Part shown: positions 25,239 through 44,411 of the stretch, one piece after another
Numbering within the stretch: the stretch's first letter is position 1
Layout: each line of letters begins with the position of its first letter
NCBI GenBank assembly: GCA_019114845.1
Contig: DXEU01000149.1
Span: forward strand, 1-45,449
From: Candidatus Lachnoclostridium stercoripullorum
GTDB taxonomy: Bacteria; Bacillota; Clostridia; Lachnospirales; Lachnospiraceae
Length of the DNA: 45,449 nucleotides
Direction of reading: 5' to 3'
The notes under the pieces: generated by a model
What the model was told of the DNA's origin: nothing
Database searches by the model: none
What the model saw: only the letters and a program-made list of their open reading frames with translations
Program-made: the position numbers and the translations under genes

Positions 25239-26717
25239 TTATAAAATCTCTTCCAGGAGGCGGATGGATTCCTCGATGGCTTTCAGGGTCTCCTCCTTGG
25301 AGCAGATCAGTCCCGACTCAGGGAGATACTGGTAGAAGTCCCGGAAGGCCTCCAGGAAGGAGGGCTCCGTGATCTCGATGTAGTTAAATGTCGAGTTGGC
25401 GGCGTCGACGCCGCAGAAGGTCAGGGAGTCGTCCCCCCGCAGGGCGGCAAAGAAGTACCGGGACAGGCGGAAGGTGATGGGGTTGGTCAGCCGCAGAAAT
25501 TCCAGGTCCTCCTCGCAGGCGCAGTACATGCTCTTCAGGATGCGGATCCGGTCCGGGATCTCCAGGGGCATGGCGTACTGGCTGGGAATGTCGGAGATCA
25601 CGCCGGTCTGCGCGAAATCCTCCATGCCGCTGCGGCTGAAAATGCAGGAGTGGTTCTCCATGGAGGAGAGCTGGCGGACCCGGGCGCAGCCCAGTCGGAT
25701 GATCTCATCTCTCCCGGGGAGATCCGGGCGGACGTATTTCTCCACCATATCCTCCGTCAGGAAGGTGGAGAGGCACGGCTGCCATTCCAGGGTGTGGAGG
25801 GAGCCGGGGGACAGATCCCGGTCCAGCATGTCCCGCAGAATGGTGGTGGGAGACGTCTGGGAGAGCATCATGGAGGTGGTCTTCCCCAGGGAGTCCAGGA
25901 ACAGGTTCCTGAAGTGGGACACGATCTCCGGGCGTCTCAAGCAGAGGGCGGTCTGCCCGTCGCAGGAGAGGAGGATCACCATGCTCCCGGAGACCATATA
26001 ATAAGGAAATGCGTGCTGCACCGGCTCCGGCAGAAGCTCGTGGGAGTAGAAGCAGTACACCCGGTAGCGGAAATGCCGGGAGACGGTGAAGGGCAGAATG
26101 TGGAACAGGATGTCCAGGTTGGTGAGGGGCGTCGCCTCCGCGGCGGGCACCTTGATCATGGGGGTGATGTGGCGCAGCTCCAGGGGCTGGGCGCTGTCTG
26201 CCGGGGAGAGCTCAGACAGCAGCAGAGCCTTCAGGGCGGGAAGGTTGCCGGGGGCGTAGAGCAGGAGCTCGCCGGGCCCTCTCCGCCTCATATGGGAGGC
26301 GCAGGTGAACAGAAGCTGGCGGACGGCGGAGAGGCCGCAGATCAGGGCGGAGTCCTGCAGCAGGGCGCTCTCCGCATCCGGGAGGAGGGAGAGGGTGCCC
26401 ACCGTTCCCGAGATTCCGGAAAACCAGCTGTCAAGCCCGGCCATGGATTCGATGGATTTTTTGATGTACTGCCGCTGCAGATAGATGTCCTCCCCCATCA
26501 GCTGGATGGCAAACAGTTCCTTCAGCTCCGCCTTTTCGGCGGGGGACAGCTTCAGGACAGAGAGGAGCTTCTGGATCAACTCCTCCGAGGCATTTCTCTC
26601 ATCCGACAGAACCTTCTGCAGGGTGGTGCGGTTGACGCCGGCCAGGGAGGCCGCCTTGTAGATGGTGAGACCGTTCTCACTGATATATTTTCTCAACAGA
26701 TTTCCTAAACTTTTCAT
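25239..26717 (-). CDS. XRE/Cro-type HTH transcriptional regulator with large uncharacterised C-terminal region
   Basis: N-terminal LGNLLRKYISENGLTIYKAASLAGVNRTTLQKVLSDER HTH; divergent from the kinase cluster. Confidence 0.8.
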   Translation of the reverse strand: MKSLGNLLRKYISENGLTIYKAASLAGVNRTTLQKVLSDERNASEELIQKLLSVLKLSPAEKAELKELFAIQLMGEDIYLQRQYIKKSIESMAGLDSWFSGISGTVGTLSLLPDAESALLQDSALICGLSAVRQLLFTCASHMRRRGPGELLLYAPGNLPALKALLLSELSPADSAQPLELRHITPMIKVPAAEATPLTNLDILFHILPFTVSRHFRYRVYCFYSHELLPEPVQHAFPYYMVSGSMVILLSCDGQTALCLRRPEIVSHFRNLFLDSLGKTTSMMLSQTSPTTILRDMLDRDLSPGSLHTLEWQPCLSTFLTEDMVEKYVRPDLPGRDEIIRLGCARVRQLSSMENHSCIFSRSGMEDFAQTGVISDIPSQYAMPLEIPDRIRILKSMYCACEEDLEFLRLTNPITFRLSRYFFAALRGDDSLTFCGVDAANSTFNYIEITEPSFLEAFRDFYQYLPESGLICSKEETLKAIEESIRLLEEIL

Positions 26718-26731
26718 AACATTTCCCCCAC

Positions 26732-26849
26732 TGTGACAATGAATTTATCTTAACATGAAACATATTGCATGCCAATGTGTGACACTGCATTTTGACAATC
26801 CGTCACAATTGGTGTCACATATTGATAAAGTGGATTATTGAGATATAAT
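26732..26849. promoter_or_regulatory. Divergent promoter region with repeated TGTGACA/TGTCACA sites and a + strand promoter
   Basis: TGTGACA at 26732 and 26778, TTTGACA at 26791, GTCACA at 26802, TGTCACA at 26813; TTGATA-16 bp-TATAAT at 26822-26849. Confidence 0.6.
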
Positions 26850-26944
26850 TTTAAGAAAATGGCTGAAATTGGCTCTGACATTGGCGGATACTTACATAAT
26901 TATGCATAAAATGTCGAGCCCGGCAGATAGGAGGAAATGAGAGT

Positions 26945-27580
26945 ATGAATTTACAGAAGTGCAGCAACGGCCACTATTACGATGGAGACGTGTACTCCAG
27001 CTGCCCGCACTGCAAGAATCAGCAGGCATCGGAAGGCAAGACAGTTGCCCTGGATGTGTCGCCGAGCGGCGGCGGAGATGTGACGGTGGCCATGTCCACG
27101 GACGAGGGCCCCACCCTGTCCGGCATGGTGCAGGCGGTGAAGGATAATTTCGGCAGCGCCCTGCCCTCAGATGACCAGAAGACGGTCAGCTTCTATGACG
27201 GCAATCAGGTGCTGGCGGAGAAGGACCCGGTGGTAGGCTGGGTGGTCTGCGTCAAAGGAGGACTGTACGGGCAGGATTTCCGCCTGAAATCCGGCCGCAA
27301 CTTTGTGGGAAGAGCGGAGAACATGGATATCTGCCTGCGGGGAGAGAGCACTGTCTCCAGAGACCGCCACGCGATCCTGATCTACGAGCCCAGACAGAAC
27401 CTGTTTCTGGTGCAGCCCGGGGAGACCAAGGAGTTGATCTACTTGAACGGCAACGTGGTTCTCACCCCCATGGTGATGAAGAAGAATGATATCCTGCAGG
27501 TGGGAGATATCTCCCTGATGCTGGTTCCCTGCTGCGACGATGTGTTCCACTGGGAAGAGGAAGAGAAAAAGGACAGATAG
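26945..27580 (+). CDS. Zn-ribbon + FHA domain protein
   Basis: N-terminal CSNGH-x9-CPHC; acidic linker; FHA motifs VGR, VSRDRHA, LNG. Confidence 0.9.
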   Translation: MNLQKCSNGHYYDGDVYSSCPHCKNQQASEGKTVALDVSPSGGGDVTVAMSTDEGPTLSGMVQAVKDNFGSALPSDDQKTVSFYDGNQVLAEKDPVVGWVVCVKGGLYGQDFRLKSGRNFVGRAENMDICLRGESTVSRDRHAILIYEPRQNLFLVQPGETKELIYLNGNVVLTPMVMKKNDILQVGDISLMLVPCCDDVFHWEEEEKKDR

Positions 27581-27623
27581 TCATCCGGCAGGAGATGAAA
27601 AAGTGACAAGGGAGGAAAAATAA

Positions 27624-28559
27624 ATGAATAGTGGTATTGTTGGAGTTGTGGAAGGATTGGCGGCCCTGGTCAGCGGACTGGGATTCATGTTCTATGCGAC
27701 CTTGATCGGATCCGTTCTTATTTCCTACATTTTAGTGGGATACATGATCATGTGCGTGGGCCGCAAGGCGGGCCTGACGGAGGATTGGATGGCGTACATT
27801 CCCATCGCCAGACAGCTGTATCAGATGCAGATTGCGAAATGCCCCTGGTGGTACATTTTCCTGTTCCAGGGATGCTTTGTGAACAACGCTGTGCTGGTAA
27901 TTCTGTGCATTATCTTCGGAGCCCTGTTTAAGAGCATGCCCCTGACCCTGCTGGTGGTGATCCTCTGGCTGGTGGCTTCCCTGGTGTTTACCTTCTTCTA
28001 TTACCGCAAGTATTATCCGCTGTTTGGATTTAACCCCAACACCGCATGGCTGGAGATCGTGTGGACCTTCGGAACGGCCAGCACCATCCTGCTGATCCTG
28101 ATGGCCTTCTCTGATTCCATCCGCTACCGCGCGGACGGCCGGGCCCTCAGCAGCGAGATGCCGGTATTTGCCAGACCGGAGCAGCAGTCCGAGAGAAGAA
28201 GCGTGCAGCAGCCTGCGGAGGACCGCACAGTGGCCAGAAGCCGTGCGGAGATCACCGGTGTGGACGGCAAGTACGCGGGGGCTTCCTTCGATGTCAGCGA
28301 CGGCTCCGAGGTGGTATTTGGACGCTCCGCTTCTGACGCCAACGTGGTGTTTGATCAGTTTGACACGGATATCAGCAGAAAGCATTGTTCCATCCGCTTT
28401 GACGCGGCTGCCGGGGATTACGTGGTGACGGATACGTCCACCAACGGCACCTACTTAAACGGCGGCAAGCAGATTCCGTCCGGCACACCCACCCACGTGG
28501 CGAGAGGTTCCGTCATCTATCTGGGCAAGAGCAGGAAGAATTCCTTCCGTCTTGGATAA
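27624..28559 (+). CDS. Polytopic membrane protein with C-terminal FHA domain
   Basis: About 5 TM segments with a KAG..WMAYIPI motif (DUF5684-like); FHA motifs FGR, ISRKHC, STNGTYLNG. Confidence 0.88.
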   Translation: MNSGIVGVVEGLAALVSGLGFMFYATLIGSVLISYILVGYMIMCVGRKAGLTEDWMAYIPIARQLYQMQIAKCPWWYIFLFQGCFVNNAVLVILCIIFGALFKSMPLTLLVVILWLVASLVFTFFYYRKYYPLFGFNPNTAWLEIVWTFGTASTILLILMAFSDSIRYRADGRALSSEMPVFARPEQQSERRSVQQPAEDRTVARSRAEITGVDGKYAGASFDVSDGSEVVFGRSASDANVVFDQFDTDISRKHCSIRFDAAAGDYVVTDTSTNGTYLNGGKQIPSGTPTHVARGSVIYLGKSRKNSFRLG

Positions 28560-28577
28560 AGGAGAGGGGCAGAGAGA

Positions 28578-29306
28578 TTGATTTCTTATCATTTGATAAG
28601 CAAGGTAGGAGAGAGAGACAACAACGAGGACAGTGTGGGCATGTTTCAGGCCGGGGCAGAGTATTGCTTTGCCCTGGCCGATGGCCTGGGCGGACACGGA
28701 AAAGGGGAGGTGGCTTCCCGAATCGCCGTGGAGCAGGCGGTGGCGGCCTTCGCGGAGGCGGGTAAAGCCTCGGAGGAGGTGATCCTCACCGCTTTCGGCA
28801 ATGCCCAGGATGCCATCCTGGCGGAGCAGCGGGCAGACCGCACGGCCAGCGATATGAAAACCACCTTCGTGTACCTTCTGGTGGGCGAGGAGGAGATCCG
28901 CTGGGCCCACATCGGCGACTCCCGGCTGTACCGATTTGAGCGCGGCAAGCTGGCGGAGCGGACGCTGGACCACAGCGTTCCCCAGATGCTTGTGGCGGCG
29001 GGAGAGATCAAGGAGAAGCAGATTCGCCACCATCCGGACAGAAACCGTCTTCTGCGGGTGATGGGGGTCAACTGGGAGGAGCCCCGGTATCAGCTGGGCG
29101 GCCCGGTTCCCGCTTCCCCCGGCCAGGCATTCCTTCTGTGCAGCGACGGATTCTGGGAATGGATCGAGGAGAAGAAGATGCTCTCCGCCCTGAAGAAGGC
29201 GGATTCCCCGGAGGACTGGATCAGTCGGATGGAAGAGATGATCCTGAAACAGGGACGGGGAAAGAACATGGACAATTATTCGGCGATCGCCGTATGGGTA
29301 GATTAG
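28578..29306 (+). CDS. PP2C/PPM family Ser/Thr phosphatase
   Basis: TTG start; RDNNED, ADGLGGH, HIGDSR, CSDG, DNYS motifs. Confidence 0.93.
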   Translation: MISYHLISKVGERDNNEDSVGMFQAGAEYCFALADGLGGHGKGEVASRIAVEQAVAAFAEAGKASEEVILTAFGNAQDAILAEQRADRTASDMKTTFVYLLVGEEEIRWAHIGDSRLYRFERGKLAERTLDHSVPQMLVAAGEIKEKQIRHHPDRNRLLRVMGVNWEEPRYQLGGPVPASPGQAFLLCSDGFWEWIEEKKMLSALKKADSPEDWISRMEEMILKQGRGKNMDNYSAIAVWVD

Positions 29307-29321
29307 TCAGGAGGAGAGACG

Positions 29322-29927
29322 ATGGCGGTGGTTCGGTGCCCCAACGGGCATTATTATGATGATCAGAAGTTTTCCAGGTGCCCCCACTGCGGTATTTTCG
29401 CCAATATGGACTTAAACCAGATGAAGGGCGGCTCCAAGCGCAAGGAAAACGACGAGAAGACGGTAGCCCTCTCCAGTTCAGAGCGGTCGGTGGAGAATTT
29501 CTGCCGCACCATCTCCCTGGAGGAGGCCATGGCCGATCCGGCAGACGACCAGAAAACCGTGGGCTACTATTCGGACAGCCATGGAAATGATTTTGTCACC
29601 GGTTGGGTGGTCTGTGTGAAGGGGCAGGAGCGCGGCAGGGATTACCGGCTGTACCACGGGTTCAACCAGGTGGGCAGAAGCCTGGGAATGGCGGTCTGCC
29701 TGTCGGCGGATCCCGGCGTCAGCAGGGAGAATCACTGCGCTGTGGTCTACGAGGCCAGGGAGAATCAATTTTACCTGGTGCCGGAGGGCGGAAACTCTGT
29801 GCTTCTGAACGGAAAAGTGGTGAGCGGGCCTGAGACGCTCCGGACGGGGGACCGGATCGGAGTCGGGGCCAGCGAACTGGAATTTGTGGCATTCTGCAGA
29901 GAGGGAAGAGTATGGGAAGACGAATGA
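29322..29927 (+). CDS. Zn-ribbon + FHA domain protein (paralogue of 26945)
   Basis: CPNGH-x9-CPHC; GWVVCVKG; VGR, VSRENH, LNG. Confidence 0.9.
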   Translation: MAVVRCPNGHYYDDQKFSRCPHCGIFANMDLNQMKGGSKRKENDEKTVALSSSERSVENFCRTISLEEAMADPADDQKTVGYYSDSHGNDFVTGWVVCVKGQERGRDYRLYHGFNQVGRSLGMAVCLSADPGVSRENHCAVVYEARENQFYLVPEGGNSVLLNGKVVSGPETLRTGDRIGVGASELEFVAFCREGRVWEDE

Positions 29928-31615
29928 GATGGCTCCCGGCAGTCCTGGCGCTCAGCCTGTTTGCCGCTCAGCCGGTCCAGGCGGATGAGACGCCAGGGCA
30001 GGAGGACAGCCCCAGGCTGGAGCAGGTATATCTGAATATGCCGGAGATCACGGTTTATGGATACGGGCTGGAGGAAGCGGGCGCCTCCCCGGAAGCATGG
30101 CTGGGAGACGAGAGGCTGACCCCGGTGTCGGCCTCTTCCTTTTCTGAGACAGGCGAGGGAGTCAGCTACTATGTGCTGCTGGATGTGTCCAACTCCATCC
30201 CGGAGTCCTATTTCAATCAGTTGAAGGAAGGCATCTGCGATTTCTGGGACGGCCTGGCGGCCGGCGACACGGCGACCCTGGTCACCTTTGGCGAGTCCGT
30301 GAAGGTGCTGCAGGAGGCGGGAGCCGGCACGGACGCCGTGCGGGAGAGTCTCCAGAGCGTGGACAATATTGACAATCGGACGATGCTGTTCGAGGCGGTG
30401 AGCCAGGCGGCGGATCTGGCGGACAGAAGCCAGGGAGCCTCCTGCCGGAGAAAGGCGTTCATCGTCATCTCCGACGGGGAAGACGTGGCGGTAGGCGAGA
30501 AGAGAGCCCAGGAAGCCCTGGATGAGCTGAAGGAGAAGGGGATTCCCGTCTACGGCGCCTGCATCCGGGATACGGCATTGGATCATATCAACAGCTTCGG
30601 CGAGTTCGCCAGGCGCTCCGGCGGAGACGTGCACGTGTTTGAGGCGGATCAGGCCAGGGGAGTCCTGGAGGAGATCCGCGGGGAGCTGACCCAGGCGGAG
30701 GTCCTGGAGTTTGCCGCCCCCACCAACCGGATTACCAACGAGTATGAGACCTTCTCCCTGAGGATTCAGGGGCAGGACGCCCCGCTCACCAGGGAGGTTC
30801 TCTCCTGCCGCTGGATTCCGGACGAGGAAGCTCCTGTGATCCTGGAGGCGGTGAAGGGGGAGGAGAGGCAGATCCTCGTGACCTTCAGCGAGCCGGTGTC
30901 CGGGGCGGATCAGACATCCGCGTACACCCTGACCCGCAGGGGGGAGACGGTGGTCATCCAGTCCGCTGTGTATGCGGCGGAGCGGAGAGACCAGGTGGTG
31001 CTCACGGCGGCGGAGCCCCTGAACCGGGGAGAGTATGCGCTGAGCTGCCAGGGAGTGAGGGATGACTCCCAGGAGCAGAACCTGGTGAGCGGCGATTTCA
31101 CCTTTGAACTGAGCACCGGGGATCCCCAGCCGGGGATCGATCCCGGGTCCCAGGCTGTCCTGTTTGGCTGCCTTCTTGCGGCTGCTGCGGTGATCATCGC
31201 TGCGGTGGTGGTTGTGCGCCGGAACCAGAAGGCGAAGGAAGTGATCGTTGTGGACGGACAGTCTATCACCGCCTCCTCCGTCAGCGTGAAGCAGCATGTG
31301 ACCACCGGCCAGCCGGAGAAAAAGACATTCTGGATGGTGGTGTCGGTGGAGGGGAGAAATCCCAAGAAGATGGAGCTTTCCATCGACCGCAGCCTGATTG
31401 TGGGACGGGCGGACATCTGCGATCTGTACTTTGACGATGGAAGGATGTCCAGGCAGCATTTTGCCCTGGAATGGGATGGTTCTTCCATGTATGTGACGGA
31501 TCTGAATACGACCAACGGGACCACGGTCAACGGAGTGAAGATAACAGGCAGAAGAAGACTGGAGCCTGGTGATCGCATCTGCGCCGGAGCGGAGGAGATG
31601 GAGATCAGCTGGTAG
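29924..31615 (+). CDS. Signal peptide-vWA-Ig-like-TM-FHA membrane protein
   Basis: ATGA overlap with the upstream gene; signal peptide ending VQA; MIDAS DVSNS...T...ISDG; Ig-like VTFSEPV segment; TM helix then RRNQK; FHA VGR, MSRQH, TTNGTTVNG. Confidence 0.88.
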   Translation: MRWLPAVLALSLFAAQPVQADETPGQEDSPRLEQVYLNMPEITVYGYGLEEAGASPEAWLGDERLTPVSASSFSETGEGVSYYVLLDVSNSIPESYFNQLKEGICDFWDGLAAGDTATLVTFGESVKVLQEAGAGTDAVRESLQSVDNIDNRTMLFEAVSQAADLADRSQGASCRRKAFIVISDGEDVAVGEKRAQEALDELKEKGIPVYGACIRDTALDHINSFGEFARRSGGDVHVFEADQARGVLEEIRGELTQAEVLEFAAPTNRITNEYETFSLRIQGQDAPLTREVLSCRWIPDEEAPVILEAVKGEERQILVTFSEPVSGADQTSAYTLTRRGETVVIQSAVYAAERRDQVVLTAAEPLNRGEYALSCQGVRDDSQEQNLVSGDFTFELSTGDPQPGIDPGSQAVLFGCLLAAAAVIIAAVVVVRRNQKAKEVIVVDGQSITASSVSVKQHVTTGQPEKKTFWMVVSVEGRNPKKMELSIDRSLIVGRADICDLYFDDGRMSRQHFALEWDGSSMYVTDLNTTNGTTVNGVKITGRRRLEPGDRICAGAEEMEISW

Positions 31616-31638
31616 GGGGATCTGCCGGGGAGGCACAT

Positions 31639-32985
31639 ATGAGGTATGAGAGAGAAATCTGCCCCAACTGTTTTGACACAGAGTACGGGCAGGGCGAGTG
31701 TGCCAAGTGCGGATACAGAGAAAGTTATGAAACAAGGAGCGCCAGGGCCCTTCAGGCGGGAACGATTCTCAACGGGCGCTACATCGTTGGGAGAGTTCTG
31801 GGCGAGGGGGGCTTTGGCATTACCTACAAAGCGTGCGATGTGGAGGGCGGGGGGCTCTGCGCCATCAAGGAGTACGCCCCCGCCGCCGACAGCGAGCGGC
31901 AGGCGGACGGGCTCACCCTGAGGACGGCCAGCGGCCGCGACCCCGCTCGCTATGAAAAAGGGCTGAAACGGTTCATGGAGGAGGCTCAGGTGCTGCATCG
32001 GCTGGGGGAGATGCCCAATGTGGTGCGGATTTTTGACCTGTTCCAGGAGAACCACACGGCCTATTTTGCCATGGAGTTGCTGGAGGGGGCCAACTTGAAC
32101 CAGATTGTCCAGGCGGCCAGGGGAGTGCTGCCGTTCAAGGAGATCACCTCCATCATCGTCCAGGTGGGGATGGCCCTGGCGCAGATTCACGAGCAGGCGG
32201 GGATCTTTCACCGGGACATCAGCCCGGAAAACATCTATGTGACCAGGGACGGCCAGGTGAAGCTGATTGACTTCGGAAATGCGAAGGAGCTGACCAGGCA
32301 GAAGGATCAGGAGTACTCCGTGGTGCTGAAGCCCAGCTTTGCACCTCCGGAGCAGCACTCCTCCAGGATGCAGCAGGGGAGCTACACAGATGTCTACTCT
32401 CTGGCGGGGACCTACTATTTTGCCCTCACGGGAATTCGCCTGCCCTCGGCGGTGGAGCGGCTCACGGGCGAGACCTACATCCCCCTCAAGCAGATGAATC
32501 TGGGGATACCGGAGGCGGTCTCGGATGTGGTGGATCAGGCTCTGGTTCTGGACTGCCGGAGACGGATCCAGACCATGCGGGAGTTCGTGGAGGGAATTTT
32601 AAAGAGCGAGCGGATGGCGGCAGTCAAGGGGCCGGAACCGCCGGCACAGTCCCCTTACCTGGAGATTTTGGCGGGGGAGATGAGAGGAGCAGTCTGGCAG
32701 ATCCCCTCCAACGTGGAGATCAAGGTGGGGCGCTCTGCGGCCAGGTGCGACATCGCCATAGCCGGGCATTCGGATGTGAGCAAGGAGCATCTGAAGATTT
32801 ATTATGACGGACAGAAGGGGCTGTTTTACATACGGGATATGTCCCGGTTCGGGACGTATATCAATGGGATTCGGCTGGAGCAGGGAACCGTTTTTTCGGC
32901 CCGGCCTCCCGTAAACATAGCGCTGGCCAGCCAGGCCTGCGTTCTGAGAGCGGCAGTGGCGCCGGCGGGCGCCGGACGCAGATAG
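31639..32985 (+). CDS. Soluble Ser/Thr protein kinase with N-terminal Zn ribbon and C-terminal FHA
   Basis: CPNC...CAKC; GEGGFG, AIKE, HRDISPEN, DFG, APPE, DVYSLA; FHA VGR, VSKEH, SRFGTYING; no TM helix. Confidence 0.93.
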   Translation: MRYEREICPNCFDTEYGQGECAKCGYRESYETRSARALQAGTILNGRYIVGRVLGEGGFGITYKACDVEGGGLCAIKEYAPAADSERQADGLTLRTASGRDPARYEKGLKRFMEEAQVLHRLGEMPNVVRIFDLFQENHTAYFAMELLEGANLNQIVQAARGVLPFKEITSIIVQVGMALAQIHEQAGIFHRDISPENIYVTRDGQVKLIDFGNAKELTRQKDQEYSVVLKPSFAPPEQHSSRMQQGSYTDVYSLAGTYYFALTGIRLPSAVERLTGETYIPLKQMNLGIPEAVSDVVDQALVLDCRRRIQTMREFVEGILKSERMAAVKGPEPPAQSPYLEILAGEMRGAVWQIPSNVEIKVGRSAARCDIAIAGHSDVSKEHLKIYYDGQKGLFYIRDMSRFGTYINGIRLEQGTVFSARPPVNIALASQACVLRAAVAPAGAGRR

Positions 32986-32998
32986 GAGGAGCAGGGAG

Positions 32999-33796
32999 AT
33001 GAACGTGGTAAAGGATCTGAAAAAGGACATTCCCCAGTGGACCATCGGTGTGGCGAGCATCATAGGGACCAGGGAGTACCAGCAGGATTACGTGTACTGC
33101 TGCAGCTGCGACAATGGCCTGCTGGGAGTGGTGTGCGATGGAATGGGCGGTCTGGACGGCGGGGAGCTTGCCAGCAGCACCGCAGCAGAAGCCCTGGGAG
33201 AGGCATTTGCCGGCAGAGACATCCGGCTGCCTGTCCCGGAGTTTTTGAAGGAACAGGCTGTCCGCATCAATGACCAGGTGCTGGCCCTCACGGGGAAGAA
33301 TGGGAAACCTCTCCGGGCGGGCACGACCATGGTGGCCGTTGTGGCGGACGGCGGAAAACTTTACTGGCTGTCCATCGGCGACAGCCGCATCTACATTATC
33401 CGCGGCGAGGAGATGAGCCAGGTAAACAGGGAGCACAATTACCGCTTGACGCTCCAGGAATCCCTGAGGAGCGGGCTCATCACCCAGGAACAGTATGAGG
33501 CGGAGGAGAAGAGGGGCCGGGCGGACGCCCTGATCAGCTATCTGGGCATCAGCCGGCTGAACCTGATGGACATCAACCGCGCGCCGCTGGAGATGATGGA
33601 CGGAGACATGGTTCTCCTGTGCAGTGACGGACTTTTTAAGAGCTTAAACGACAGCCAGATCAAGGCGCTGGTAAAGGACAATGATATAGATATGGATATT
33701 GCGGCGGACCGCCTGTGCCAGATGGCCCTGAGCAAACGCCGGGGCGGCCAGGACAATACGTCTGTTCTGCTGCTTCAGTACCATAAAACGGAGTAA
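32999..33796 (+). CDS. PP2C/PPM family Ser/Thr phosphatase
   Basis: REYQQD, CDGMGG, SIGDSR, CSDGL, DNTS motifs. Confidence 0.93.
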   Translation: MNVVKDLKKDIPQWTIGVASIIGTREYQQDYVYCCSCDNGLLGVVCDGMGGLDGGELASSTAAEALGEAFAGRDIRLPVPEFLKEQAVRINDQVLALTGKNGKPLRAGTTMVAVVADGGKLYWLSIGDSRIYIIRGEEMSQVNREHNYRLTLQESLRSGLITQEQYEAEEKRGRADALISYLGISRLNLMDINRAPLEMMDGDMVLLCSDGLFKSLNDSQIKALVKDNDIDMDIAADRLCQMALSKRRGGQDNTSVLLLQYHKTE

Positions 33797-33810
33797 CAGG
33801 GGAGAAGATT

Positions 33811-35874
33811 ATGATACGTTGTTTGAATTGCATGCAGGAATTTGACGAGCAGTATGGGGTGTGCCCCAACTGCGGTCACATTCCGGGAGAAGATCCCAAG
33901 GAACCATTTCAGCTGAGACCGGGGGTCGTGCTGGCGGGCCGCTATGTGGTGGGAACCGCACTAGGAGTGGGAGGATTCGGAATCACCTACCGCGCCTGGG
34001 ACAACACGCTGCAGAAAATGCTGGCCATCAAGGAATACTATCCCAGCGCCAACGGGATTGTGAACCGCGTCCCGGGAAAGCCGCAGGTGATCGTCTACTC
34101 CGGCAACCGGGCGGTGGAGTTTGAGAACGGAAAGGTCCGTTTCCTGGCGGAGGCCAGAAACATGGCCAGGTTCAACACCCACCCCAACATCGTCCATGTG
34201 TACGATTTCTTTGAGGAGAATGGGACCGCCTACATCGTCATGGAGTTCCTGGACGGAATTTCCTATAAGCAGTTTATCGCCGCCAACGGGGGAAAAGTGG
34301 ATCAGAAGGTGGCCCTGGAGGTGACCCTCTCGGTGCTGGACGCCCTGAAGGAGATCCACAAGGCGGGGATCATTCACCGGGATATCAGCCCGGACAACGT
34401 ATTTATCTGTATGAGCGGCATCATCAAGCTCATCGACTTCGGAGCCGCCAGATTCTCCACCGGCGAGGAGGAGAAGACCCTCTCCATCATCCTGAAGCCG
34501 GGCTACGCGCCGCCGGAGCAGTACCGCAGCCGCAGCAAGCAGGGGCCTTGGACGGATATCTACGCGGTGGGCGCCATGTTCTACCGGGCGCTGACCGGGG
34601 TGATGCCGGACGAGTCGGTGAACCGCATGGTTCAGGACCGGGTGGTTCCGCCCCATGAGCTGAATCCGGAGATCCCGGAGAATCTGAGCAACGCCATCAT
34701 GAGGGCCATGGCCCTCAATCAGGAGCTCCGCTTCCGCAACGTGGACCAGTTCCGGGAGGCAATCCAGGGGCAGGCTCCGGTGCGGGATGTGAAGGAGGAG
34801 CTGAAGAGAAGAAAGTTGTTTCGAGCCGGGATTGTGGCCGGCGTGTTTACCGTCATCATCGCCGCGGGGGCGGTGTGCCTGCTCCTGTTCCGCAGCAGAA
34901 GCGCGGATGCGGCCCTGGACGACGCCAAGATCCTGGTCTGGTACCCCGTGAGCGGGGAGGAGACCGGGGAAGGCGAGGAGGAATTCCTCTCCATGGCCCA
35001 GGCTTATCAGGAATATTATCCCAACATCGAGATCCAGGTGGAGGCAATCCCCGCCGACGAGTACGGGGAGAGGCTTGCGGAGGCGCTTGAGACAGGGGAG
35101 AACGTGCCCACAGTATTTGAGAGCACGAGCCTGGACAGCAGCTGGAACGAGAAGCTGGCCTCTGTGGACGAGGCATATGAGTGGCTCACAGAGCGGGAAG
35201 AGATGGGAAATTACTACTTCCTGGAGGAGTACCGGGGAGCGGCCGAGAATATGCTGCGGATGCCCATGAGCTTTGAGGTGCCCGTGGTCTACGGGGACAC
35301 CCTCATGGCGGAGGACGAGGACGGCAGTTTCCTCGGCGCGGAGGAGCTTGCGGACGCCCTGGAGAGCGGAAACGGCTACGCGGTGGATCCCGACGCGGCG
35401 GATCTCTACGGGGAGCTTTTGCCGGATCTGGATGAGAGCCAGGGCTATGAAGATTTTGTGGTGGATCTGGACGCGGAGAACGTGGGAAGCGGCGAGAAAT
35501 TCGACGCCGACCAGGAGCGGGCGGCTGCCCTGGAGGGCAAGGTGGAATACTACCTGTCCGACACATCCGAATATGAGAGAGTTCAGGCGGACATGGCTGG
35601 CGTCTACCAGGTGATCCTTCTGAAGGATATGCCCCTCACCGGAAGGCTGACCAACCTGTGGAGCGTGAGCGCGGACGCCAGCCCTGCGGAGCAGAAGGCG
35701 GGAGTGCGGCTCCTCTATTTCCTCATGTCAAAGGAAAATCAGCAGATTATGAATATACAGAACGGACGGGGACTGCCGCTCCACCGAGAGATTTTTGACG
35801 AATACGAGACTATGAACGCAGAATTTGCAGGCATCGGCGAGAGCCTGGAGCAGATTACAATGAAAGCGCGTTAG
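33811..35874 (+). CDS. Receptor Ser/Thr kinase: Zn ribbon-kinase-TM-extracellular solute-binding-protein-like domain
   Basis: CLNC...CPNC; GVGGFG, AIKE, HRDISPDN, DFG, APPE; TM helix; ILVWY...YQEYYPNIEIQVEAIPADEYGERL..AL..G..P resembles the start of carbohydrate ABC SBPs. Confidence 0.88.
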   Translation: MIRCLNCMQEFDEQYGVCPNCGHIPGEDPKEPFQLRPGVVLAGRYVVGTALGVGGFGITYRAWDNTLQKMLAIKEYYPSANGIVNRVPGKPQVIVYSGNRAVEFENGKVRFLAEARNMARFNTHPNIVHVYDFFEENGTAYIVMEFLDGISYKQFIAANGGKVDQKVALEVTLSVLDALKEIHKAGIIHRDISPDNVFICMSGIIKLIDFGAARFSTGEEEKTLSIILKPGYAPPEQYRSRSKQGPWTDIYAVGAMFYRALTGVMPDESVNRMVQDRVVPPHELNPEIPENLSNAIMRAMALNQELRFRNVDQFREAIQGQAPVRDVKEELKRRKLFRAGIVAGVFTVIIAAGAVCLLLFRSRSADAALDDAKILVWYPVSGEETGEGEEEFLSMAQAYQEYYPNIEIQVEAIPADEYGERLAEALETGENVPTVFESTSLDSSWNEKLASVDEAYEWLTEREEMGNYYFLEEYRGAAENMLRMPMSFEVPVVYGDTLMAEDEDGSFLGAEELADALESGNGYAVDPDAADLYGELLPDLDESQGYEDFVVDLDAENVGSGEKFDADQERAAALEGKVEYYLSDTSEYERVQADMAGVYQVILLKDMPLTGRLTNLWSVSADASPAEQKAGVRLLYFLMSKENQQIMNIQNGRGLPLHREIFDEYETMNAEFAGIGESLEQITMKAR

Positions 35875-35891
35875 GGCGGACGGGGGAGACT

Positions 35892-37391
35892 ATGAAGCGA
35901 TGTCTGAACTGTATGGAAGAATTTGAGGATCACCTGAGGATCTGCCCCGCCTGCGGCGGGGGAAAGGGCAGGGAATACCCGTTCGCCCTGAAGGCGGGAA
36001 GCATTCTCCAGGGGCGGTATATTGTGGGCAACTGTCAGAGAGCCAGAGCCTGCGACATTCGCTATATAGGCTGGGATGCCCTGTTTGAGAGAAAGGTCTT
36101 TATCGAGGAATTTTATCCAGCCAGGCTGGCGGACCGGGATGAGAACGGGAGAGTCTGGCCTGCATCCGGGCAGGAGGAGGCGTACCGGGAGAATCTGGGG
36201 CGCTTTGTCCATTTCAGAAAAGAGCTGATCCGGCTCTACAAGGAGACGGACATCGAGGAGGTATACAGCTGCTTTGAGGAGAACGGCACCGCCTACGCCG
36301 CGTTCCGCTATACAGAGGACCGAACCCTGGAGGACCTGGTCAGCGGGAACGTCCTCTTAGAGGACAGCGACGCCATGGCTTTCCTCTACATGGCCCTGGA
36401 GGCGGTGAAAAAGATCCACGGCCTCGGCCTCACCCACGGGGCGGTGAACCTGGAGAATCTCCAGGTGACGGCCGAGGGCAAGCTGGTGCTGACCGGCTTC
36501 GGGGAGCCGTGCCACTGGTGCGGGGATCCGGAACAGATCGACTATGGAAACCCGGGGGAGGAGACGGATCTTTTCGGCCTGGCCCTGGTGTTCGGGAAAA
36601 TGCTTCTCGGCAAGAGCGGAGCCGGACCGGCGGAGATTGTGAAGTATCTGGATTCCGGAGACCACCATCTGCCGGTGAGGACGGTTCAGGCCTTAAAGCA
36701 CAGCCTGACCAGGGATCCCAAAAAAAGGCTCACCTCCCTGGACAGCTTCTATGACCGGCTGTTCGGCGACAGCATGACCATGAAGCTGGCGGAGGGCGAG
36801 GGGAGGTCCCGGGGCTCATCGGGGAGAGGAAAACGCCGCCTGGTGATCTGTGCGGCGGCGGTGATCCTGTTTTTGGGCGCTTTCCTGGCGGCCAACCGCC
36901 CGGGAAGAGAGCAGACGGGCCTGATCGAACTCCCCGGGGACACGGAGACGAGAGGAGAGTTCGCGGCCGCAGCCGGGGCGATGGCCGGACAGTTCAGAGT
37001 CGGGCGCGGGGCCTCATCGGTGAGGCTGGGAAAAGCCGGATTGGAGCTGTTGAAGGGCGGCACGGGGAATTCCCAGGAAGGGGGATTCGGAGGCCTGAAC
37101 GCCCTGCTCAAGGAAAAGACGGAGGAGGACGGCGAGGCCGAGGAGGAGAAGGAGACTTCCTCCAAATCGACTTCCAAGGTGTCTGACAAGTCATCGGCGA
37201 AAGCGCCCGCCAAGGTGCCGGAGACAAAAGCGCCCGCCAAGGCGCCGGAGACGAAAGCGCCCGCCAAGCCGGCCACTCAGCCGGCCACTCAGGCGCCCAC
37301 CCGGGCACCGGAGACCACAGCGCCGGAGAGGCATTCACCTTCTGAGACGAAGAAAGATGCCCTGGTTGTCCCGAAGGGGCCGCAGGGATAG
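35892..37391 (+). CDS. Membrane pseudokinase (Zn ribbon-degenerate kinase-TM-low-complexity tail)
   Basis: CLNC...CPAC and LKAGSILQGRYIVG match the neighbouring kinases, but the Gly loop is lost, AIKE becomes FIEE, HRD becomes HGA and DFG becomes GFG. Confidence 0.85.
   Translation: MKRCLNCMEEFEDHLRICPACGGGKGREYPFALKAGSILQGRYIVGNCQRARACDIRYIGWDALFERKVFIEEFYPARLADRDENGRVWPASGQEEAYRENLGRFVHFRKELIRLYKETDIEEVYSCFEENGTAYAAFRYTEDRTLEDLVSGNVLLEDSDAMAFLYMALEAVKKIHGLGLTHGAVNLENLQVTAEGKLVLTGFGEPCHWCGDPEQIDYGNPGEETDLFGLALVFGKMLLGKSGAGPAEIVKYLDSGDHHLPVRTVQALKHSLTRDPKKRLTSLDSFYDRLFGDSMTMKLAEGEGRSRGSSGRGKRRLVICAAAVILFLGAFLAANRPGREQTGLIELPGDTETRGEFAAAAGAMAGQFRVGRGASSVRLGKAGLELLKGGTGNSQEGGFGGLNALLKEKTEEDGEAEEEKETSSKSTSKVSDKSSAKAPAKVPETKAPAKAPETKAPAKPATQPATQAPTRAPETTAPERHSPSETKKDALVVPKGPQG
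37200..37330 (+). repeat. 27-bp (KAPAK[V/A]PET) and 12-bp (PATQ) coding repeats
   Basis: Directly visible in both DNA and protein. Confidence 0.8.
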
Positions 37392-37544
37392 ACGGATCTA
37401 TGCCGCCGGACCGGCGGCGGGATTTATAAAGGCGATGGCGCGGGAGGCGAGCGGCTGGGCCGCAAGCCGGCCGCGAGATCGCGGCGGATGGGAGAAAACC
37501 TTCTGCCGTCCGCATAGAAATACAGGAATGGATAGGAGACAGAC

Positions 37545-39725
37545 ATGGAAAGACGTTGCATGGGATGCATGGAGATGTACGATGAGCAGTTTGAGATCTG
37601 TCCGCACTGCGGGTACGTACATGGGACTCCGCCCAAGGAGGCGTATCACATCACGCCGGGTTCCCTGCTGGCGGGGCGGTATATCATAGGCCGTGTGCTG
37701 GGCTTCGGCGGATTCGGAATCACCTATATCGGGTACGATCAGGTGCTGGAGACCAAGGTGGCCATCAAGGAGTATATGCCGGGAGAATTTTCCACCCGTA
37801 TGCCCAACCAGCAGATGGTGACGGTTTACTCTGGAGAGCGGGCGGAGCAGTTCCACGAGGGAATGTTGAAAATCATCGACGAGGCCAGAAGGCTGGCCCA
37901 GTTCCAGAATGAGCCGAACATCGTGCACATTTACGACTGCTTTGAGGCCAACAACACGGCCTACATCGTCATGGAGTACCTGGACGGCGAGTCGGTGAAG
38001 GAGCTTTTGGCCAGGACGGGAAAGATCCCTGTGGATCAGGCATTGGATATTGTGCTGAAGGTGATCTCGGCCATGAAGAAGGTGCACGAGATCGGCATTA
38101 TCCACCGGGATATCGCACCGGATAATATCTACATACTGAAGGATGGAAATGTAAAGATTCTGGACTTTGGAGCGGCCAGGTACGCCACCACCAAGCACAG
38201 CAAGAGCCTTTCCGTGATCATCAAGCCGGGGTACGCGCCGGAGGAGCAGTACCGCAGCCGGGGCGACCAGGGGCCGTGGACGGATGTGTACGCCCTGGCG
38301 GCCACCTTTTACAAGATGATCACCGGGGTGACGCCGGAGGACGCCATGGAGCGCAGCGTCAAGGACCTGCTGAAGAAACCGTCCAAGCTGGGAATCTCCA
38401 TTCCCAAGGGGATGGAGACAGCCATCATGAACGGGCTGAACGTGCGGATTGAGGACCGGACCCAGACGATGGATGAGTTTGAGCAGGAGCTCATGGCCGC
38501 GGAGGTGAAGGAGAAGGTGGCCAGGCAGCGCCGGGCCGACGTGGGAAAGATCCCCATGTGGGCCAAGATCGCCGCTGCGGTGGGCAGCTTGGCGGTGATT
38601 GCCCTGGCGGTGATCGTCATGACCTTCAACTTCATGCCCAAATTGGAAGAATACGCCCTGCCGGAGGGAAAGACCATGGTGCCCAACATGGTGAACCAGG
38701 ATCTGGAGACGGCGGAGCAGATGGGAAATGAGAAACAGCTGCAGGTGATGGTGCAGTCCATGAAATATTCGGCGGTGATCCCGGAGGGAAATGTCACCAA
38801 CCAGCTGATCCCCACGGGAACCGTGGTGGATGTGCAGACGGAAGTGGGACTGGAGATCAGCCGAGGCAAGGAGAAGGTGGTGGTTCCCCTGGTTCAGGGC
38901 ATGGGCCAGGAGGAGGCAGTCGCCGCCCTGGAGGAGGCGGAGCTTACCGTGGAGACCAGGGAGGTGGACAACGAGTACTTCGCCCCTGGTTCCGTAGTGA
39001 GCCAGAGCATCGAGGGCAACACCACAGCGGTCAAGGGAGATACCATCATCCTGGAGATCGCCAAGGACAACGGCGGCGGAGATCCAAACATCATGGTGAG
39101 CGTTCCCATGCTGGAGGGCATGGACCTGACGGAGGCTCAGCAGCTTGCGAGGGAGGATCACCTGTACATCTATACGGTTGAAAATGAATTCAGCGACACC
39201 GTGCCGGAGGGAGCCATCATCTCCCAGGAGACGGCTGCGGGAGAGCAGGTGGCGCAGAACTCCACCATCCGCGTGGTGGTCAGCATGGGACGGGAGAAGG
39301 TTCAGATGCCCGGCGTGGAGACCATGGAGCGGCAGGCAGCGGTGGATGCCCTGGAGACCCTGGGACTGACCGTCACCATAGAGGAGGAGTACTCCAACAC
39401 CTTTAGAGAGGGAACGGTTATCAGCCAGAGCGTGGCTGCGGATGAGATGGTGGAGAAGGGAACCTCAGTGACCCTGACCATCAGCCGGGGACCGGCGCCG
39501 CAGAGACAGACTCAGCCGGCCAGACAGCCGCAGACCCAGACGGCCAGACAGCCGGCCACCCAGGCACCCCAGACGCAGGCTCCGGCGCCCACCCAGCCCG
39601 CGACCACAGCGCCGCCGGCTACCCAGGCGCCCACTCAGGCACCCACCCAAGCGCCCACCCAGGCTCCCTCCAACAACAAGGAGAACCTGATCAATAATCA
39701 GCTGGGCGGAATCGGAGCACAGTGA
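37545..39725 (+). CDS. Receptor Ser/Thr kinase with Zn ribbon and four PASTA domains
   Basis: CMGC...CPHC; GFGGFG, AIKE, HRDIAPDN, DFG, APEE; TM helix; four VP.v.G....A...G.v..Q repeats; Q/T/P/A-rich tail. Confidence 0.93.
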   Translation: MERRCMGCMEMYDEQFEICPHCGYVHGTPPKEAYHITPGSLLAGRYIIGRVLGFGGFGITYIGYDQVLETKVAIKEYMPGEFSTRMPNQQMVTVYSGERAEQFHEGMLKIIDEARRLAQFQNEPNIVHIYDCFEANNTAYIVMEYLDGESVKELLARTGKIPVDQALDIVLKVISAMKKVHEIGIIHRDIAPDNIYILKDGNVKILDFGAARYATTKHSKSLSVIIKPGYAPEEQYRSRGDQGPWTDVYALAATFYKMITGVTPEDAMERSVKDLLKKPSKLGISIPKGMETAIMNGLNVRIEDRTQTMDEFEQELMAAEVKEKVARQRRADVGKIPMWAKIAAAVGSLAVIALAVIVMTFNFMPKLEEYALPEGKTMVPNMVNQDLETAEQMGNEKQLQVMVQSMKYSAVIPEGNVTNQLIPTGTVVDVQTEVGLEISRGKEKVVVPLVQGMGQEEAVAALEEAELTVETREVDNEYFAPGSVVSQSIEGNTTAVKGDTIILEIAKDNGGGDPNIMVSVPMLEGMDLTEAQQLAREDHLYIYTVENEFSDTVPEGAIISQETAAGEQVAQNSTIRVVVSMGREKVQMPGVETMERQAAVDALETLGLTVTIEEEYSNTFREGTVISQSVAADEMVEKGTSVTLTISRGPAPQRQTQPARQPQTQTARQPATQAPQTQAPAPTQPATTAPPATQAPTQAPTQAPTQAPSNNKENLINNQLGGIGAQ
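39500..39670 (+). repeat. Low-complexity QPATQAP/TQAP coding repeats
   Basis: TQAP recurs at the 3' end of the PASTA kinase gene. Confidence 0.8.
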
Positions 39726-39794
39726 CGGGAGCGGAGCACAGGAAGATAGGATAGAACCAGAGGAATGTTCAGATATAAGAAGGAGGCAACGCAT

Positions 39795-40493
39795 ATGAAG
39801 AAACAATTGGGAGCTGTTTTGCTGACACTCGCCCTGTCGGCGGCGGCATCGGTGACCGCCTGGGCCGGCTGGGAGACGGACGGGACGTCCTGGTGGTACA
39901 ATTATGACGAGGGGGGCTACGCCTCCTCCGGCATCCGCACCATCGACGGCCTCAACTACTGCTTTGACGCCAACGGCTACATGCTGACCGGCTGGCAGTA
40001 CCTCGACTGGAAGTGGTACTTCTTTGACGCCGGCGGCGTCCAGGCTCAGGGCTGGGCCATGATCGACGGGACCTGGTACTACCTGGATCCCAACGAGAAC
40101 GGCGCCATGAGAACCTACTGGCTGACTCTGCCGGATTCCAAGAACTCCAGCAAGATGAACCAGTACTACCTGGATGAGACGGGGGCGCTCCAGACGGGAA
40201 TCTTCTACCTGTCCAAGGATGTCCACGACGGCTGGCAGTTCACCTACGAGGCGGACGCCGACGGCGTGCTGATCTGCAATAAGAAGGAGACAGCTGGGGA
40301 TACGGAGTACTGGCATGACGATGCCGGACGCATCCGTTTCCGCAATCCGGACACGATCCGGGCCGCAGAGGAGGAAGGAACGGACGAATGGCAGTATCTG
40401 TTCAGCCCGGCCTGGCAGGAGGAGGCTCTGAGAGAGCAGCAGGAAGAAGAGATGATGAACTACGAGGACGAGTTTGACGACTGGTGGGATTGA
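39795..40493 (+). CDS. Secreted cell-wall-binding-repeat (choline-binding-like) protein
   Basis: AAGGAGG RBS; signal peptide ending AWA; GW...WYFFD..G / YYLD..G repeats; no catalytic domain seen. Confidence 0.88.
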   Translation: MKKQLGAVLLTLALSAAASVTAWAGWETDGTSWWYNYDEGGYASSGIRTIDGLNYCFDANGYMLTGWQYLDWKWYFFDAGGVQAQGWAMIDGTWYYLDPNENGAMRTYWLTLPDSKNSSKMNQYYLDETGALQTGIFYLSKDVHDGWQFTYEADADGVLICNKKETAGDTEYWHDDAGRIRFRNPDTIRAAEEEGTDEWQYLFSPAWQEEALREQQEEEMMNYEDEFDDWWD

Positions 40494-40570: not shown

Positions 40571-40616
40571 GACGACGAAAAGGGCCGCTCCTGTGGGAGC
40601 AGCCCTTTTCGTTGTT
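40571..40616. terminator. Bidirectional rho-independent terminator
   Basis: CGAAAAGGGCCGCTCC-tgtg-GGAGCAGCCCTTTTCG with A/T tracts on both sides. Confidence 0.8.
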
Positions 40617-40757
40617 ATTGGGAATGGTAGGTATATAAATAAGAAAATGTTATAGGGGGGCCGGACGGTATCACCCGTCCGGTATGAGTATGAAAAAGCT
40701 TTCTAATCCCAAGCATCTGCTGCTTGAAATAAGGCTCGTTACCCTTTCGGATAACTT
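40571..40757 (-). ncRNA. Candidate structured small RNA
   Basis: Minus-strand hairpins GTTATCC-GAAA-GGGTAAC, TTCAAGCA-gcaga-TGCTTGG and CCGGACGG-gtgata-CCGTCCGG, ending at the terminator; TTGACA on the minus strand at 40781-40786. Confidence 0.4.
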
Positions 40758-40927
40758 ACTTATAATATAAAGAGCAAATGTGTCAAAAGTATGTCCCCTC
40801 CATAAAAAAAGAATAAAATTTCTGACGGAAAAATAAAAAAGATGGAAAATAAAAAATTTGAGAAAATCTCTTTGAAAAACCAGGGATCTTGTATATAATA
40901 AAAAAGAGGAAGAGACAGGAGGAAGCT

Positions 40928-41941: not shown

Positions 41942-42145
41942 TCGCCGGAGGGACATGCCTGAGAATCCAGGCGGACATATGTGAATGAGACAGTCAAGGT
42001 GCTGCAAAATCAAGGATCCCCCATCTGTGCGGTGGAGGCCGGTTGCCCGCGGAGGCGGCCATCGGCGGCGGGAGAATTGGATTTTGCGGCACTTTCATAT
42101 TCTGAGCGAATTCTGAGCGAACGTGCGGGAGAGGGGGAGATTTTG

Positions 42146-44368: not shown

Positions 44369-44411
44369 GTGATTTTGCCTGTGAGTCTATGAGAGGAGGA
44401 TTTCCTGACAC

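Follow-up and report, generated by a model that had tools for sequence, protein, structure and literature searches.

A conserved accessory gene cluster of gut Clostridia encoding a predicted multi-receptor phosphothreonine network

Ser/Thr signalling in the Firmicutes has mostly been studied through a single PrkC/PrpC pair. The window analysed here, the whole 45,449-nucleotide stretch of contig DXEU01000149.1 from Candidatus Lachnoclostridium stercoripullorum, carries a cluster of eleven genes, numbered g1 to g11 along the + strand, which represents a second, accessory and far more elaborate phosphothreonine network in gut Clostridia. The cluster is real and conserved as a unit. In our judgement there is a little better than an even chance that its receptor kinases sense wall fragments and oligosaccharides, and that a predicted membrane-bound complex of forkhead-associated (FHA) proteins would control envelope export or remodelling. 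The sequence data establish which genes are present, their catalytic motifs, their conservation and neighbours, the enrichment of a linker motif and the purifying selection; ligands, phosphorylation, binding and output are predicted.

All eleven open reading frames lie on the + strand within 26945-40493, with intergenic gaps of -16 to 43 nt and a single exception of 153 nt between g9 and g10, and their starts are preceded by purine-rich, mostly Shine-Dalgarno-like sequence; the initial annotation's description of 11 co-oriented, closely spaced genes is borne out. Pfam assigns FHA domains to g1, g2, g4, g5 and g6, each above the cut-off, PP2C_2 phosphatase domains to g3 and g7, and Pkinase domains to g6, g8, g10 and, weakly, g9. 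Taken with the catalytic motifs, these matches reproduce the proposed inventory of three intact kinases, one pseudokinase, two PP2C phosphatases and five FHA domains. The distinct surface modules that had been named are likewise found by Pfam: a domain of the von Willebrand factor A type (vWA) with a weak Big_5 match (vWA/Ig) in g5, a solute-binding protein (SBP) domain in g8 (SBP_bac_8), four PASTA repeats in g10, choline-binding wall repeats in g11, and a membrane domain in g2 with a weak DUF5684 match.

A genome scan with an alignment of the adaptors, as we call the Zn-finger-FHA proteins g1 and g4, returned at least 576 stretches encoding a relative, including more distant adaptor relatives in other clusters. 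Locus counts below refer to the best 80 of these, 38 of which have full 10-kb flanks; related loci are labelled L, genomes G (G000 being the host) and host contigs C. PP2C genes are present in 79 of the 80 loci, vWA-transmembrane (TM)-FHA genes in 77, membrane-FHA genes in 52, kinase-FHA genes in 48, kinase-SBP genes in 39 and kinase-PASTA genes in 33. Gene order, which the initial annotation had singled out for checking, is conserved: a PP2C gene adjoins a Zn-finger-FHA gene in 78/80 loci, the latter is followed by a vWA-TM-FHA gene in 74/80, and L026 and L027 each have all 11 genes in this order. Among named records the nearest relative comes from Lachnospiraceae (L025, 79% on g4). At the corresponding site G011 keeps the order g2-g11, its g1 and a helix-turn-helix (HTH) gene being at the end of another contig. 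Among 200 evenly sampled genomes of the family, g5 matched eight, seven with the cluster and one with a lone vWA gene; among 400 genomes of the phylum it matched four; three of these belong to two further families, and all have genes for a kinase, PP2C and FHA nearby. Of the 80 records, four are labelled as lying outside Bacillota, taking the record labels as given. Named records include the cultured carriers Hungatella effluvii DSM 24995, Blautia luti MSK.16.34, Blautia sp. MSJ-9 and Faecalicatena contorta ET51.

Selection and phylogeny bear on the most sceptical explanation, namely that the cluster is a heap of kinase and FHA genes, recently duplicated, in which one kinase is decaying and the genes serve no common function. 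The kinases are indeed paralogues (37-42% identical), as are g1 and g4 (37% identical). Against this, gene order is conserved across families, and dN/dS relative to G011 is below 0.2, at 0.09-0.18 for nine genes (g1 and g3 not among them). A quick tree built from 79 kinase domains, in which the placement of PrkC is a long-branch join that we do not interpret, gives each slot (kinase-FHA, kinase-SBP, kinase-PASTA, g9-type pseudokinase) a group of its own that spans families. Pseudokinases occur in 39/80 loci, and in 24 of the 38 with full flanks; the count of 39 excludes sequences without N-terminal columns (start-codon miscalls). These conservation data largely refute the heap, which we regard as barely credible. 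As separate observations, vWA-TM-FHA genes are tandemly expanded in L067 (three) and L118, the latter with a 1286-aa version bearing an M4 peptidase-like helical domain.

The catalytic Lys, alphaC Glu, HRD, Asn and DFG are all present in g6, g8 and g10, and all four kinase-fold proteins start with a four-Cys ribbon. By its motifs g9 is a pseudokinase, with E at the catalytic Lys, HGA in place of HRD and GFG in place of DFG, and its kinase fold is kept under purifying selection (dN/dS 0.12 against G011); in many g9 orthologues PASTA repeats replace the low-complexity tail. We rejected g10 as the housekeeping PrkC: it scores 330 bits, under the 450 cut-off of NF033483 (Stk1 equivalog), it does not lie in an rsmB-prpC-prkC-rsgA-type locus, and the canonical PrkC/PrpC pair is found on a separate contig, C72. 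The modelled outer domain of g8 has a fold like the MalE-class oligosaccharide binders. Elsewhere the outer domains of related kinases comprise PASTA, SBP, GH25, OmpA, beta-lactamase/D,D-peptidase-like, C-type lectin, F5/8-type, MORN, Sel1, WG and LRR domains, a range suggesting that they are swappable and often wall- or glycan-binding. PASTA kinases bind muropeptides (PMC6213207). The gene g11 is the conserved last gene of this subtype, following the PASTA kinase in 5/5 further same-subtype genomes and in G011, L026, L027, L060 and L073. In two of these loci (L060:13,000-16,400 and L073:13,000-16,400) a PP2C is fused in frame to a kinase-TM-SBP receptor of 943-948 aa.

The adaptors are the predicted substrates of the kinases. 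Both begin with a CxxGH...CPxC finger, followed by a linker in which the motif [DE]xxT[VI] is strongly enriched: it occurs 215 times in 149 adaptor proteins, against a shuffle mean of 17 and maximum of 28, and its density is 17.6 per 1000 residues in the linkers versus 0.9 in 505 unrelated neighbours. The +3 residues of the motif are hydrophobic and the surrounding linkers poorly conserved; in 34 sequences of the g4 linker T79 is invariant and T47 and T63 are at least 90% conserved. Two to three acid-x-x-Thr-Val motifs in each adaptor are predicted from sequence to hold the phospho-acceptor threonines. Comparable enrichment was absent, or rested on at most nine counts, in the vWA TM-FHA, kinase-FHA and juxtamembrane linkers. 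The phosphatases g3 and g7 retain every metal-binding Asp of PPM/PP2C, and their pairing with the adaptors is type-matched in 86/86 adjacencies (60 g3-g4, 26 g7-g1, none crossed), types being assigned by best BLAST hit and loci anchored on g4. A complex prediction for g3 with g4 (median 0.27, mark 0.32) weighs neither way. Zn-finger-FHA relatives also adjoin two degenerate PP2C-like genes and a DnaJ-like gene in L019, L020 and L021 (G048, G033 and G008), a different clostridial cluster in which no kinase was seen and which we take to be contractile-injection-like.

The predicted readers of these threonines are the better conserved FHA domains. Arg, Ser and His are conserved in the g2, g5 and g6 classes, where the GR, SxxH and NG motifs are found, and G, R, S and H are invariant in 25/25 sequences of the g2 class; g6 itself has F at the FHA Asn position. 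The membrane domain of g2 matches DUF5684 in 2/24 members, with Atlas scores below 0.9, which leaves it without a firm family assignment. For g5, a model with a pLDDT of 87.9 predicts a signal helix, a beta-sandwich/vWA domain, an Ig domain, a TM helix and an FHA domain, so placing the vWA between signal peptide and TM helix that it would be extracellular. The MIDAS (metal ion-dependent adhesion site) residues D91, S93, S95, T157 and D188 are invariant in 55/55 sequences, and the best fold match is ArnB (8s05), followed by pilus adhesins and integrin-type vWA domains.

We propose the following sequence of events. Ligand would activate g10 through its PASTA repeats and g8 through its sugar-type binding domain, with the pseudokinase g9 serving as a non-catalytic co-receptor or scaffold. 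The activated kinases would phosphorylate the motifs in the flexible g1 and g4 linkers, and the resulting phosphothreonines would recruit the FHA domains of g2, g5 and the soluble kinase g6; g6 would amplify the signal, and the metal-dependent, adhesin-like g5 would cluster with the receptors. Finally, g3 would reset g4 and g7 would reset g1. In relatives the same switch may be wired to an FHA-FHA-ABC (FHA2-ABC) exporter, to type VII secretion, or to wall hydrolases and proteases, and the present copy would act through its own g2, g5 and g11 or on targets encoded elsewhere. Of the "multi-receptor envelope-sensing network" first suggested, the conserved and probably co-transcribed multi-receptor phosphothreonine network stands, and envelope sensing is what we infer beyond it. 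A bolder version, which we put forward tentatively as a possibility, is a plug-in, metazoan-style surface signalosome: swappable receptor kinases and a pseudokinase co-receptor would write on two multi-Thr adaptors, each with its own phosphatase, and the adaptors would polymerise by FHA-phosphothreonine contacts, forming a membrane cluster with an integrin-like, metal-dependent vWA receptor at its centre. Such an assembly would detect neighbour cells or wall damage, and depending on the lineage its signal would go to type VII secretion, an Rv1747-like exporter or wall hydrolases. The network offers named candidate phospho-sites (g4 T47, T63 and T79), two pairings of a phosphatase with an adaptor, a pseudokinase that is conserved, and sensors that can be exchanged. 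It thereby makes testable both the ligands of bacterial receptor kinases beyond the PASTA kinases and the gating of exporters and type VII secretion by Thr phosphorylation in Gram-positives.

Several observations weigh against envelope control by such a complex. The solute-binding domain of g8 is shorter than its fold matches (TM-score about 0.6) and only 33% conserved, which makes its ligand uncertain. Sel1, MORN, WG and LRR outer domains are not glycan-related, and 5 of the 14 kinase outer regions scanned gave no Pfam match. In the adaptor FHA domains (154 sequences) R is kept in 93%, S in 75% and H in 89%, and the canonical Asn-Gly is mostly lost; as the Asn-Gly is mostly gone and the Ser is kept in just 75%, phosphothreonine binding by these domains is uncertain. 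In the host genome, whose 83% completeness bounds every genome-wide absence reported here, EssC, WXG100 and an FHA2-ABC exporter all went undetected, and a search run without a positive control found no FHA2-ABC in five same-subtype genomes. Contigs from RNA libraries, described below, can neither establish a single transcript nor rule out DNA.

The state of the adaptor FHA domains could also suit a nutrient switch of the mycobacterial GlnH-GlnX-PknG-GarA type, in which an SBP-activated kinase acts on an FHA switch protein (PMC6069109). On binding sugar, g8 would cause g1 and g4 to be phosphorylated; their FHA domains would then fold onto their own phosphothreonines and release cytoplasmic enzymes. 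The SBP-kinase fusion in g8 fits this scheme, as do the GarA-like adaptors, each a flexible, Thr-bearing N-terminal part joined to an FHA domain, with GarA/OdhI among the closest solved relatives; the non-canonical Asn position could suit phospho-independent targets. However, the 70 largest neighbour families include no recurrent metabolic gene, three of the five FHA domains belong to membrane proteins or to a kinase, and the accessory genes are envelope-related. We consider a nutrient switch quite improbable.

Relatives of the cluster give some indication of what an envelope-directed complex might control. An FHA-FHA-ABC exporter of Rv1747 architecture is present in 25/80 related loci and LytTR regulators in 29/80, and other accessory genes encode CHAP, amidase, M15 peptidase, polysaccharide deacetylase, subtilase and trypsin-FHA proteins. 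Type VII secretion system (T7SS) genes adjoin the cluster in 3/80 loci; in the T7SSc-j marker test (TsxC/EssC plus WXG100), both markers were found in L027 and part of the set in L096 and L099. The initial annotation had seen no obvious output gene, which holds for this copy and not for relatives with embedded FHA2-ABC exporters (25/80), T7SS genes (3/80), or, in many other loci, wall hydrolases or proteases.

These neighbours raise the alternative that the cluster evolved as a threat-sensing trigger for type VII or another contact-dependent secretion system, in the manner of PpkA/PppA/Fha, and is here orphaned or acting in trans. Besides the three loci above (L027, L096 and L099), vWA-less sub-clusters adjoin EssC, YukD and WXG100 genes in G025 and G035, and related modules in G435 and G640 adjoin T7SS genes; the kinase-less clostridial clusters L019-L021 combine a Zn-finger-FHA gene with two PP2C-like genes, and T7SSc-j loci themselves carry kinase/PPM/FHA genes (PMC11217815). 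Yet no EssC or WXG100 was found in the host genome, purifying selection persists there in the absence of a detected T7SS, and EssC was matched in 1/7 cluster-bearing sampled genomes against 43/200 overall, a comparison that leaves out the vWA-less sub-clusters beside EssC. We accordingly rejected type VII secretion as an obligatory output. Since EssC was matched in only that one of seven genomes and in 2/5 same-subtype genomes, and not in the host, secretion is better seen as an optional than as a defining output, and an origin as a secretion trigger seems to us unlikely. More broadly, EssC, YukD and WXG100 genes immediately adjoin parts of the cluster in L014-L017, L027, L096, L099, L113 and L129, and the EssC proteins beside cluster parts tend to keep the phosphothreonine-binding residues of their FHA domains (three examined).

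The cluster is probably co-transcribed and expressed. Contigs from RNA libraries span all 10 gene junctions, and those of five runs from two studies start at 26852-26876, at the strong predicted promoter, which we take as a weak hint in its support; contigs of two unlabelled runs pass through the promoter site without starting, run X13 is fragmentary and shows no start, and one contig ends at 40640, past the terminator-like hairpin. The runs had been retrieved with the cluster as query. To judge from sequence, the unit probably includes the divergent HTH gene as well as an operator-like palindrome. Homologues of the HTH gene lie beside the cluster in 5/80 loci, as well as in G025 and G011, and the palindrome TGTGACA-N16-YGTCACA stands beside the divergent HTH gene here, in L024 and in L074. 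It was not seen upstream of five of the six other HTH homologues shown, nor upstream of the first adaptor in the 15 subtype loci examined, for which latter reason we tie it only to the divergent-HTH arrangement. Within the cluster, the spacer between g9 and g10 (37392-37544) folds into three hairpins that score as strong (z -5.6), exceeds its G011 counterpart by about 100 nt and has one short match only elsewhere in the genome; it is possibly an mRNA processing or stability element.

The cluster is accessory rather than visibly mobile. It is flanked by a CmpB-like membrane gene and mreB, and in the five congeners inspected mreB and usually the flanking genes are kept while the cluster is missing at that site. 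Its GC content (55-63%, genome 59%) shows no anomaly, a plasmid search with g5 and a viral-contig search with alignment A1 gave no match, and mobile-element or phage cargo was rejected on these grounds. The term "island" used at first is apt only for an accessory unit, missing at this site from five congeners, with ordinary GC content and no plasmid or viral copy found. The stretch is present in data sets labelled chicken gut. Upstream and outside the cluster, a BlaI/BlaR1-like repressor and M56 peptidase pair (22266-24195) is kept in several cluster-less congeners; downstream lie mreB, recD2 and a comF-like gene (40928-45161), mreB having its own promoter-like site at 40872-40899. The site upstream of mreB is a variable hotspot in the genus.

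A kinase elsewhere in the host genome qualifies the initial description of the cluster as self-contained. This orphan kinase of the cluster subfamily, 45-48% identical to g8 and g10, lies near a contig end (G000:C67:382-2730, L122) and has a TM helix and an extracellular leucine-rich repeat (LRR) domain; this fourth kinase of the subfamily is possibly an extra receptor feeding the same adaptors. The sole other FHA protein found in the genome, a DUF6382-FHA protein encoded beside a DUF5702 gene (G000:C164:3360-4496, L123:361-1497), is a candidate reader in trans; its locus is presumably of the Tad/Flp-pilus type. Three more unlinked Hanks-type kinase genes (G000:C121, C71 and C72:12575-13279) have unrelated contexts. 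The coordinates of all features are collected in Table 1.

Table 1. Features of the cluster and its flanks, with positions in the window
Feature	Position	Strand	Basis or remark
XRE-type HTH protein, 492 aa, likely operon regulator	25239..26717	-	HTH_3/HTH_31, C-terminal part without assignment; single copy in genome; outside the coordinates of the initial annotation
Operator-like palindromes	26773..26824	.	TGTGACA-N16-CGTCACA (26778-26807) within 13-bp inverted repeat abutting -35 box
Sigma-70-type promoter, TTGATA-16-TATAAT	26822..26849	+	11/12 match
g1: Zn-finger (CxxGH...CPxC), Thr-repeat linker and FHA adaptor, g1 type	26945..27580	+	37% identical to g4
g2: polytopic membrane domain (weak DUF5684-like) and canonical FHA	27624..28559	+	Pfam; FHA residue conservation
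g3: PP2C phosphatase, g3 type; partner of g4 adaptor by gene order	28578..29306	+	Pfam; metal-binding Asp
g4: Zn-finger, Thr-repeat linker (T47, T63, T79) and FHA adaptor	29322..29927	+	Conservation; motif enrichment
g5: signal peptide, beta-sandwich/vWA with intact MIDAS, Ig, one TM helix, predicted cytoplasmic FHA	29912..31615	+	Receptor/adhesin-like
g6: soluble Zn-ribbon Hanks kinase and FHA, active motifs	31639..32985	+	Own clade in kinase tree
g7: PP2C phosphatase, g7 type	32999..33796	+	Precedes g1-type adaptor in 26 related loci
g8: Zn-ribbon kinase, TM and MalE-like (oligosaccharide-class) solute-binding domain	33811..35874	+	Pfam; catalytic motifs; fold
g9: Zn-ribbon pseudokinase, TM and low-complexity tail	35892..37391	+	Motif loss; dN/dS 0.12 vs G011 orthologue
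g10: Zn-ribbon kinase, TM and 4 PASTA; not housekeeping PrkC	37545..39725	+	330 bits, NF033483 cut-off 450
g11: exported cell-wall-binding-repeat protein	39795..40493	+	ORF open from 39765; start more likely 39795
Terminator-like hairpin with U-run	40571..40619	+	-34.7 kcal/mol

No description of the cluster was found in the full-text literature, mostly open-access papers, which leaves the suggestion of an undescribed system in place; the available parts of PMC12419801 and PMC7159879 do not describe it. PADLOC, consulted as a known-defence check, gave no system-level match. Its hits to PD-T4-6, mad6 and Stk2 concern the kinase domain only, apart from one PP2C match, and the corresponding defence systems (PD-T4-6, MADS and Stk2) were rejected as generic kinase matches. 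These hits, together with patchy presence at a variable site and the activity of TerY-P-like triads against phage (PMC11090510), could suggest an anti-phage or abortive-infection system built on a vWA-PP2C-kinase triad. With the PADLOC matches confined in this way, no partner gene matched beyond the one PP2C, no nuclease or toxin effector recurring among the main neighbour families, a predicted extracellular vWA and no viral or plasmid copy found, we regard that explanation as very improbable.

The cluster fails a defining test of each named known system. Like the TerY-P triad it has a MIDAS vWA, PP2C and zinc-ribbon kinases, but TerY is a stand-alone vWA, the triad's Zn ribbon or OB fold is C-terminal to the kinase, and its definition, as far as the available text gives it, includes no FHA or receptor domains (PMC11090510), whereas the cluster has N-terminal Zn ribbons and a vWA-Ig-TM-FHA fusion; we rejected Ter membership on this architecture and on TerD not being found in the host genome. 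A TolQ-like or TPH-vWA motor cluster was likewise rejected, as no MotA/ExbB was found in the genome and the g5 TM helix has no conserved Asp. None of the 11 genes encodes a giant FN3/cadherin protein, MoxR, DUF58 or a transglutaminase-like protein, nor did the genome yield a DUF58 match. The initial statement that ter and secretion genes are lacking agrees with our failure to find TerD, WXG100 or EssC, and the locus is not a Ter, type VI secretion system (T6SS) or T7SS locus. The T6SS PpkA/PppA/Fha set resembles it in combining a membrane kinase, a PP2C and an FHA reader, there for phospho-dependent assembly of a membrane complex, but is Gram-negative, has a single kinase and phosphatase and sits inside a T6SS locus (PMC5995506). 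T7SSc-j loci carry kinase/PPM/vWA/FHA genes (Garrett, Higginson and Palmer 2024, PMC11217815). They share with the cluster a membrane kinase, a PPM phosphatase and FHA proteins in Bacillota, and some cluster relatives adjoin EssC, WXG100 and YukD; every T7SSc-j subtype, however, has TsxC and TsxA, neither of which was found here, its TscE vWA is cytoplasmic, and the available description includes no Zn-finger-FHA pair or multi-receptor set.

Mycobacterial pathways offer partial parallels. In GlnH-GlnX-PknG-GarA, the kinase is SBP-activated, has a metal-binding Cys domain and targets an FHA protein that bears the Thr (PMC6069109), although the SBP there, GlnH, binds amino acids and is a protein by itself, and the g8 SBP is fused to its kinase. 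Clustering of Rv1747 depends on PknF/PstP (PMC9312465), and the exporters in 25 related loci share its FHA2-ABC architecture; unlike Rv1747, the clostridial proteins have only a short linker between the FHA domains.

The closest equivalents are smaller modules, and the initial claim that no characterised equivalent exists does not survive them: ArnA/ArnB, DRA0331-DRA0334 and T7SSc-j all combine vWA, FHA, kinase and phosphatase components. In Deinococcus radiodurans, DRA0331-DRA0334 form an operon of vWA, Ser/Thr kinase, FHA and PP2C genes in which the FHA protein is a phospho-docking adaptor between kinase and phosphatase (10.64898/2026.01.23.701218). The likeness drawn here is one of ingredients within a single operon; that system has four genes and one kinase, its PP2C is fused to a KI-FHA whereas g3 and g7 stand alone, and the available description mentions neither receptors of the PASTA or SBP kind nor a pseudokinase or a vWA-TM-FHA fusion. 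In Sulfolobus acidocaldarius, ArnA (ZnF-FHA) and ArnB (vWA) are under the control of the kinase ArnC and the phosphatase PP2A (PMC12852372); the module is further defined by a phosphorylation-dependent complex acting on motility genes. The cluster similarly pairs a Zn-finger-FHA protein with a beta-sandwich/vWA protein, encoded adjacently in 74/80 loci, under apparent kinase and phosphatase control. Whereas the Zn finger and FHA of ArnA bind the vWA of ArnB directly, in the same compartment, the vWA of g5 is predicted to be exported and TM-fused to an FHA domain of its own, and the cluster adds Thr motifs on the adaptors, more than one receptor kinase, two phosphatases and a pseudokinase. Switches of this kind are already known, as a smaller vWA/FHA/kinase/PP2C module in other microbes; what is new is the architecture, with an FHA domain fused to an exported vWA, a set of several receptors that can be swapped, a pseudokinase that is conserved and two pairs of phosphatase and adaptor.

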